From a virus (Duplodnaviria > Heunggongvirae > Uroviricota > Caudoviricetes): a stretch of DNA of 12,066 nucleotides. Position numbers and translations under genes: made by a program. Position 1 is the stretch's first letter. Each line of letters opens with the position of its first letter. This document shows positions 8,551 through 9,695 of this stretch, piece by piece. The notes under the pieces were generated by a model. It saw only the letters and a program-made list of their open reading frames with translations. It had not been told where the DNA came from and searched no databases. The DNA lies in the IMG/VR virus record IMGVR_UViG_2531839374_000009, positions 1-12,066 of that record, one strand, 5' to 3'.

Positions 8551-9695
8551 ATGAACATTCAACAGCGTATAGCAGAACGCTTGGTTCAGGCCAGAAACGA
8601 CGCAGGAATGAGTGCAAGCGCCGTCGCAGATGCGATCGGTGTTGTTCGTCAAACCTACAGTAAGTTTGAGCAGGCGCTAGGCGTCCCAAGCGTTACCCAA
8701 CTCATCATGCTCTGCAAGATTTTCGATAAGCCTGTCGGGTATTTTTATGAGCAAGATGATGGCGAGTTTCGTTTTGCAATGCGAGCAGATAGTCCGGATT
8801 TGTTGGATGCCAGACTTCGCAATGAGTTGATTGAAAAGTTAAAAATATCAATGCAATTGAGGAAGCTGCTGATGCTAATTTGCCAGAAGATCTTCCTAAC
8901 TCAATGCCTGTTTTTACCGCCAAAGCAGAAGATTTGCGAAGAGTCGAAGATAAGGCTATGGAAGAACGTTTCCGTCTTGGTATGGGAAACGCTACTTGCG
9001 TTGGTGACATTGTAGCCATTTTGGAAGCATCGGATATTCGAGTGATCCCGTTCAATCGCGAGGAAACCGATAAAGGGATGGTATTCGGATTTTCTGCGTT
9101 TTCGAACAAATACGGTACCGCGATTTATGTAAATGTTCACGACAGCATTTCAATAGAACGTCAAATCTTCAGTATTTGCCATGAATATGCTCATCTTATC
9201 TTCCACCGTGATGAGTATGATGGCCCTGCTAAAAGCTATAAAACTAATGGCAAAGCAATTTCACCGGAAGAAAAAGTTGCTAATCACTTTGCTGCTTGTT
9301 TTTTGGTACCAGAAAGCGCGTTGCGAAAACAATTCGTCATGCAAGGTGGTGGATGGGCGTATGAGGAAACCGTCCTTAGACTAAAAAGCATTTTCAGAGT
9401 ATCAGCCACTTGCATCATTGAGCGTCTTAGTAAATGTAATTTAATTAATCAGCAAAACACTAGATACCTATGGGCAACCGCCAATCGTAAAGGCTGGAAG
9501 AGACACGAGCCAAATCCCATAAGGGAAGCACTAAATTATAAAGGTCGCCTAACCGTCTTATCGCGTAAAGCATGGGAAGCCGGTTCCGCGTCGGAAACCT
9601 TCATATCTGAACTTTTAGAATTAGACAGAAAAGCTCTCAGCAATCTTCTGGATGAATGGTACGACGAACAGGAGGCCGGAGAGGATGCCGTTTGA
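8551..9695 (+). CDS. XRE-family HTH fused to ImmA/IrrE-type zinc metallopeptidase (DUF955/Peptidase_M78), apparently interrupted by a 1-nt deletion in the A5 run at 8841-8845
   Basis: HTH_3-like N-terminus (MSASAVADAIGVVRQTYSKFEQALGVPSVTQLIMLCKIF); frame-3 continuation from ~8835 (KNINAIEEAADANLPEDLP..) carries the HEXXH motif in SICHEYAHLIFH; frame-1 tail beyond 8840 is not protein-like. Confidence 0.6.

Follow-up and report, generated by a model that had tools for sequence, protein, structure and literature searches.

The window analysed here, a stretch of 12,066 nucleotides that is the whole of contig AMGB01000035.1 of the Shigella flexneri assembly GCA_000296305.1, raises the question of whether two overlapping open reading frames are two genes or one gene whose frame has been broken and, if the latter, whether the break belongs to the strain or to the deposited sequence. 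The first open reading frame (8551-9015, plus strand, 154 aa) encodes an XRE helix-turn-helix (HTH), and the second (8880-9695, plus strand, 271 aa counted from TTG) encodes an M78 peptidase. The sequence reads as an earlier note had described it, with the two frames overlapping out of frame across 8880-9015 (136 nt). The two open reading frames are halves of one prophage regulator/antitoxin gene whose frame is broken at codon 98/99. The break lies at a run of five adenines (A5; 8841-8845, plus strand) that is one base short, given that relatives have six (A6) in alignments with CFSAN029787 and AVS0662.

The interrupted gene can be followed through both frames. Its 5' part (8551..8843, frame 1, plus strand, about codons 1-98) encodes the XRE-family HTH, a beta-strand and the first half of a helix spanning residues 87-106. 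Its 3' part (8844..9695, frame 3, plus strand, codons 99-381 plus the stop) encodes the rest of this helix, an M78 (ImmA/IrrE) zinc-peptidase with the motif HEYAH, and a C-terminal helical domain. In frame 3 a TGA occupies 8832-8834, and the open stretch that begins at 8835 reads KVKNINAIEEAADANLPEDLP...; its first in-frame ATGs are found at 8904 (263 aa, the GenBank call) and 8958 (245 aa, RefSeq WP_307963880.1). The earlier note had regarded frame 3 as coding from 8835, upstream of any start codon, and this view is upheld because homologues with as little as 26% identity can still be aligned across residues 99-113, where E104 is nearly invariant. Thus, judged by this alignment, the stretch upstream of the start codons is true coding sequence and not a chance open frame. 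In frame 1, K98 is followed by ISMQLRKLLMLICQ... (ISMQLRKLL...), the beginning of an out-of-frame tail (8845..9015, plus strand) of 56 non-homologous residues and a stop. This tail had been judged unlike protein, and the only sequences that match it are themselves frameshifted copies (P0001, P0008 and P0012). The addition of one A at 8841-8845 gives a single protein of 381 aa (about 382 in the earlier estimate), which is identical to an existing protein, P0015, present on 148 contigs in Enterobacteriaceae. Residues 1-98 of the first open reading frame are likewise identical to residues 1-98 of P0015. The truncated protein is present on 3 contigs, against the 148 for P0015.

Comparison with homologous loci had been proposed as a check, and it found the orthologues fused, with the arrangement of two separate genes in none of the clean loci. 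All 32 complete E. coli genomes that carry the locus have A6 and a single coding sequence of 1146 nt (32/32), which agrees with the proposal that a -1 indel in the A run has split a single gene. The 381-aa form is also present in every examined assembly that shares an identical 110-aa upstream neighbour. Three relatives compared with the window over 4.4-7 kb (L032, L036 and L038) are separated from it by 1-2 SNPs and by the deletions at the A5 run and 11361 only. Among 74 homologues, with identities ranging from 98% to 27%, fused proteins of 375-387 aa that possess both domains form the great majority, and the alignment is conserved straight across the break. Distant homologues have no lysine codons at the break site, where they read LDRLAAIADLE and similar. 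These comparisons show that the fused state is ancestral and locate the lesion exactly.

Fused and separate HTH/DUF955 genes both occur in PIN-linked three-component systems (PMC5499597), and the window might on this basis be read as a native layout of two genes, in which HTH repressor and M78 protease are encoded apart, as they are in ImmR/ImmA, CapH/CapP and DdrO/IrrE. The probability of such a layout is vanishingly small. Most of the 74 homologues are fused at about 380 aa, the first open reading frame ends in residues that have no homology, and the overlap with the second is long and out of frame. For an independently translated protease the second frame would have to begin within the conserved protein, given that it has no start until 8880/8904, inside the homologous region. 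Furthermore, the AlphaFold model has no linker at the break, which falls inside helix 87-106. Because this helix is confidently modelled and conserved, the two pieces are not natural domains. The two-gene layout is therefore ruled out by the fused homologues, the conserved alignment across the break, and the position of the break within a helix.

Based on its domain content and profile matches, the gene is classed as an RmrA-type gene encoding an XRE-HTH and M78 (ImmA/IrrE) zinc-peptidase protein of 381 aa. Pfam identified HTH_3 at residues 13-65 (E 1e-8) and Peptidase_M78 at residues 193-294 (E 6e-12) of the repaired protein. Fifteen RmrA profiles from PADLOC match nearly its full length (best 3e-35, residues 4-321), and phrog_2439 is matched as well. 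In the homologue alignment, H211 and E212 are invariant and H215 is nearly so. The AF2 model (mean pLDDT 85.8) comprises helices at 3-58, a strand at 74-78 and helix 87-106, and Foldseek matched the peptidase part to CapP (7t5t), IrrE (3dte/3dti) and PprI (8slm). RmrA is the HTH and zinc-peptidase antitoxin of RosmerTA defence systems (bioRxiv 10.1101/2022.05.11.491447; PMC10440598). The repaired open reading frame has both elements of this antitoxin, an XRE HTH and an M78 domain with HEXXH, and the frame that joins them is interrupted in the window at codon 98/99. Previous studies have reported that cells with an active partner toxin require rmrA (PMC13566846) and that a delta-rmrA construct was unobtainable (bioRxiv 10.1101/2022.05.11.491447). 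The earlier note had remarked that inactivation would matter if the neighbouring PIN protein is toxic, which appears apt for a gene predicted to be an RmrA-type antitoxin. The text of the Rousset et al. 2021 preprint, which was looked at for an essential zinc-peptidase antitoxin in E. coli, names neither a peptidase nor a PIN protein.

The contig is the early region of a P2-like prophage. Its gene order is a Dam-type methylase, an Ash-family region, gpA (Phage_GPA in Pfam, replication; 4990-7509), two small genes, the HTH/peptidase gene, a PIN-like gene, and then ogr and the portal gene (Phage_portal in Pfam; 10664-11365), with these last two on the minus strand. CFSAN029787 has the same gene order, followed by ogr, portal and terminase. 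In P2-like prophages the interval from gpA to the portal gene gpQ is a hotspot for cargo (Rousset et al. 2022, PMC9122126), and the rmrA-like/PIN pair occupies this interval as variable cargo in the window. A search with this cargo pair against phage and plasmid collections gave no match. The portal gene breaks off at 11448, where it is followed by an ISEc20-like element of the IS110 family (11449-12066, to the contig end) that has 99.8% identity to annotated copies, and the prophage was therefore already defective in this strain.

The presumed toxin/effector of the pair is the PIN-like gene (9685..10203, plus strand, 172 aa), which is intact in the window. Its ATG, as read from the sequence, overlaps the rmrA stop by 11 nt, and we propose that the rmrA-like gene is translationally coupled to this downstream PIN-like nuclease gene. 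The Pfam family PIN (PF01850) matches the partner with 24.6 bits across residues 20-127, and the precomputed annotation of an identical protein gives PF11848/DUF3368. The partner is also identical to P0030, which is present on 155 contigs. The module may be read as a toxin-antitoxin or defence pair. Upstream of the operon, the region 8380..8550 (plus strand) is a possible promoter/operator from its position. An 8-nt perfect inverted repeat (GAGTGTGA/TCACACTC) at 8411-8438 and AT-rich repeats are found upstream of 8551, where a scan for sigma-70 consensus promoters gave no match. By analogy with ImmA/ImmR, CapP/CapH and IrrE/DdrO, the HTH domain would autoregulate the operon, and the protease domain would sense a phage or stress cue and then release the nuclease.

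The pair resembles several known systems to different degrees. RosmerTA systems are anti-phage systems that comprise the antitoxin RmrA and the toxin RmrT (Millman et al. 2022; Ernits et al. 2023, PMC10440598), and they share with the pair an antitoxin with an XRE-HTH and an ImmA-type zinc-peptidase, a small overlapping partner, and a location in a prophage defence hotspot. However, the partner here is a PIN-like nuclease and not an experimentally tested RmrT (e.g., that of phage Kita, which depolarises membranes), and in the window the frame of the putative antitoxin is interrupted. RmrT toxins are heterogeneous by definition; in PADLOC the partner matched no RmrT profile and only PDC-S70, weakly (4e-4). 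Pairing of the ImmA/Rosmer antitoxin node with PIN-like domains has also been noted (Ernits et al. 2023, PMC10440598).

A likeness in the partner is found in the toxin-antitoxin class that combines an HTH, DUF955 (COG2856) and a PIN-like protein. In this class a fused HTH-DUF955 gene followed by a PIN-like gene of the COG2405/DUF3368 or DUF4411 kind forms a predicted three-component system (Matelska et al. 2017, PMC5499597; see also Makarova et al. 2009, PMC2701414). In the window, the fused HTH-DUF955 gene is directly followed on the same strand, with overlapping stop and start, by a PIN-like gene of the first of these kinds, COG2405/DUF3368 (PF01850 and PF11848/DUF3368), although the class is itself a bioinformatic prediction in which the domain roles are predicted. 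ImmA/ImmR of ICEBs1, CapP/CapH of CBASS and IrrE/DdrO of Deinococcus share the peptidase fold and the HEXXH motif, and each relies on an M78 protease to control an XRE HTH. Those systems are encoded as two separate genes whereas here there is one polypeptide in most homologues, and the split in the window is a lesion and not an architecture of the ImmA/ImmR type. The analogy suggests that the protease domain could relieve HTH repression, or release the toxin, on a stress or phage signal. The spr1629 family (NCBIfam NF052239) likewise has the fused architecture and aligns over residues 9-321 (E 2e-24), but its score of 86 bits is far under the curated cut-off of 335 and the protein is not an equivalog.

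With one gene established, the remaining question is the origin of the missing A, for which a sequencing error and a strain-private mutation are about equally likely. The marginally preferred reading, held with only slightly better than even confidence, is that the A was lost as a homopolymer-length miscall in a low-quality draft, in which case the strain would carry an intact rmrA-like gene. Compared with four near-identical complete genomes (CFSAN029787 etc.), the window has 12 one-base indels and 2 SNPs, and all 12 indels are in homopolymers and occur in both directions. Nine of them (1099, 1109, 1120, 1127, 1130, 1507, 1895, 2171 and 3265) are private to the deposited contig, as is the SNP at 2697. 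The nine indels break open reading frames for proteins of 140 aa, 176 aa and 79 aa and for a 103-aa DUF4406 protein, all of which are intact in relatives and in L021, a Logan reassembly contig from the read set SRR061723. Given that these indels are absent from all other related sequences, including this read reassembly, they are consensus errors. A run of three cytosines at 11361 (C3), which truncates the portal frame, is C4 in every relative and is probably another miscall; the resulting 230-aa portal product is found in the deposited record only and is uninformative for SRR061723. Compared with L036 over 7 kb, the window has 1 SNP and 2 homopolymer deletions, an indel-to-SNP ratio that is unlike real divergence and odd for a real change. 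These comparisons show that the deposited contig is unreliable at homopolymers, and A5 could be one of its errors.

The distribution of A5 adds to the case for a miscall. For this allele the carriers are the deposited record, SRR061723 and the noisy run SRR17645344, which also has a contraction of T6 to T5, and SRR061723 is the only clean data set among those with A5. The A6-to-A5 contraction recurs in Logan contigs (L005-L014) from read sets full of homopolymer deletions, and this recurrence indicates that the site is miscalled by error-prone chemistries. The recurrence of the frameshift on a second allele (P0008), present in 10 Logan contigs, was considered as independent support for a real hotspot. 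This candidate was rejected because the contigs concerned (L006-L014), like L005, carry many sample-specific homopolymer deletions, and the recurrence of P0008 was discounted because the contigs had been found by searching for the frameshifted protein, which introduces ascertainment bias. The intact PIN gene, identical to the common allele beside a broken antitoxin frame, was also counted for a miscall. An exact-pattern scan for A5 in metagenome_contigs and genome_contigs gave 0 matches and the A6 control gave only 1 match, which indicates that these collections barely contain the locus.

The excess of 12 indels over 2 SNPs was initially a candidate for a clear-cut artefact, but this conclusion was softened by the Logan contigs of SRR061723, which show A5 without the nine other indels. 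The alternative, to which slightly less than an even chance is given, is that this S. flexneri strain or lineage truly carries the A6-to-A5 change as a private mutation, which arose by replication slippage in a decaying P2-like prophage. The contig SRR061723_706 (L004; window 8099-10300) exactly reproduces A5 and is otherwise identical to the complete-genome relatives, so A5 is supported by reads and is not an assembler slip alone. In L021, from the same run, all nine deposit-specific indels are corrected, and L004 and L021 agree with the complete genomes at 26 other homopolymers of at least 5 nt over 5.1 kb. In addition, L021 has a private SNP at 2372 and is two SNPs from the window, and it may thus come from a sister strain or an independent data set. 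If SRR061723 were Illumina data, or derived from a sister strain, A5 would be real. However, a 454-type undercall common to SRR061723 and the deposit is possible, the deposit demonstrably miscalls homopolymers, and the carriers of A5 are few against the 148 contigs with the intact protein.

A parallel for a trustworthy reassembly is given by a second S. flexneri draft, AKMV01, and its apparent read set, SRR060018, where the Logan contig is right at an A8 run. Across 4.76 kb, the deposited contig AKMV01000027.1 (L017) and the Logan contig from SRR060018 (L020) have 0 SNPs and a single indel, A7 against A8; the draft is in error at this run and the Logan contig is correct. The homopolymer error of the AKMV01 deposit is of the same kind as those of the window assembly.

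A genuine homopolymer polymorphism in the same element, T6/T7 at 3617, also favours a real deletion. With T6 at 3617-3622 there are two genes (61 and 123 aa), and with T7, in genomes of the CFSAN029787 type, there is one 184-aa 'DNA-binding protein'. T6 is present in six independent assemblies, including a 95.8%-identical allele, and is therefore a real polymorphism.

The biology of the prophage has been weighed in both directions. A real deletion would leave an HTH-only fragment of 98 residues with the 56-residue tail, a weakly reinitiated peptidase fragment at best, and an intact PIN gene. The PIN protein would then be tolerated through polarity or lost coupling, through residual repression by the HTH fragment, or through low toxicity. 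Relaxed selection is plausible in a prophage that is already dead, its portal gene having been cut by the insertion sequence, and Shigella genomes build up pseudogenes. Nevertheless, counter-selection is expected against loss of an RmrA-type antitoxin beside an intact toxin (PMC13566846; bioRxiv 10.1101/2022.05.11.491447). In general, the generic evidence (a miscalling deposit, the indel-to-SNP ratio and the intact toxin) favours error, and the site-specific evidence, A5 in reads, favours deletion. An informal weighing under several sets of assumptions stays near even.

A functional role for the A run is far less probable than either of these origins. The run has been considered as a recoding or contingency site, acting by transcriptional slippage, +1 ribosomal frameshifting or phase variation. 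In this reading the balance between HTH-only and full-length protein would be governed at the A5/A6 tract, and the toxin or defence module would be adjusted accordingly. Within the TTA AAA AAT of the intact allele lies a heptamer (A AAA AAT) of the slippery form X XXY YYZ, and for longer runs transcriptional slippage has been described in Shigella flexneri. A tract of 5-6 A is short for efficient slippage. Clean relatives are all in frame with A6, and outside noisy data neither A7 nor A5 alleles were found. The A run is absent from distant homologues, which lack lysine codons at the position, and a slippery run is therefore not conserved. The tail in the alternative frame has no homologues except frameshifted copies. 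A programmed frameshift or slippage gene was rejected on these grounds, given that neither a conserved slippery run nor out-of-frame relatives were found, and recoding is regarded as highly improbable. There is also a small chance that A5 is real and viable and that the split gene works, either because the HTH fragment and a reinitiated peptidase fragment act as a pair like ImmR/ImmA, into which the fused RmrA would have been converted spontaneously, or because rare slippage supplies the full-length antitoxin. If the split gene still worked, the A tract would turn a PIN-based prophage defence module on and off or adjust its dosage. Any functional reading of the A tract is given a similarly low probability.

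Whether miscall or deletion, the feature is an ordinary one-base homopolymer lesion or miscall in a known gene family and carries little weight beyond annotation. If it is an error, the RefSeq entries WP_307963879.1 and WP_307963880.1 are spurious and should be one 381-aa RmrA-type protein, and the contig serves as a warning on homopolymer errors in this assembly. If it is real, the gene is one more Shigella prophage pseudogene, and a broken antitoxin-type gene beside an intact PIN gene would suggest that the PIN partner is non-lethal here or that the fragments are functional. The occurrence of an RmrA-like and PIN-like pair in the P2 hotspot is a combination already predicted, and the intact A6 operon is a reasonable candidate for phage defence.

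Several minor observations were made on the same locus in other assemblies and on neighbouring parts of the window. The 'complete' genome CP091384.1 (L027; GCA_019551055.2) has the operon in pieces of 116 aa and 183 aa with several homopolymer insertions, and its terminase and portal genes are similarly damaged; it resembles a long-read assembly that was left unpolished. At about 8292-8369, just ahead of the HTH gene, the window has a remnant of an StbB-like (plasmid-stability) gene, and prophages of the AVS0662 type have complete parM and stbB genes adjoining the same HTH-peptidase/PIN pair (L002, 1695-2970). An IS600 element of 1267 extra bases is inserted at the position corresponding to 8231-8233 of the window in CFSAN029787, RMDEC332, RMDEC364 and VL46 (L001, 7611-8767), and the window is free of this element, which is present in its closest complete genomes. 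In the Ash-family region, Phage_ASH matches within an open reading frame at 4008-4634 (3e-7), and no gene is called across 4008-4327. Run lengths in this region vary among relatives (A6/A7 at 4027-4033; T6/T7/T8 at 4142-4148), and 4008-4327 could represent either a hypervariable spacer or an Ash-family gene in decay.
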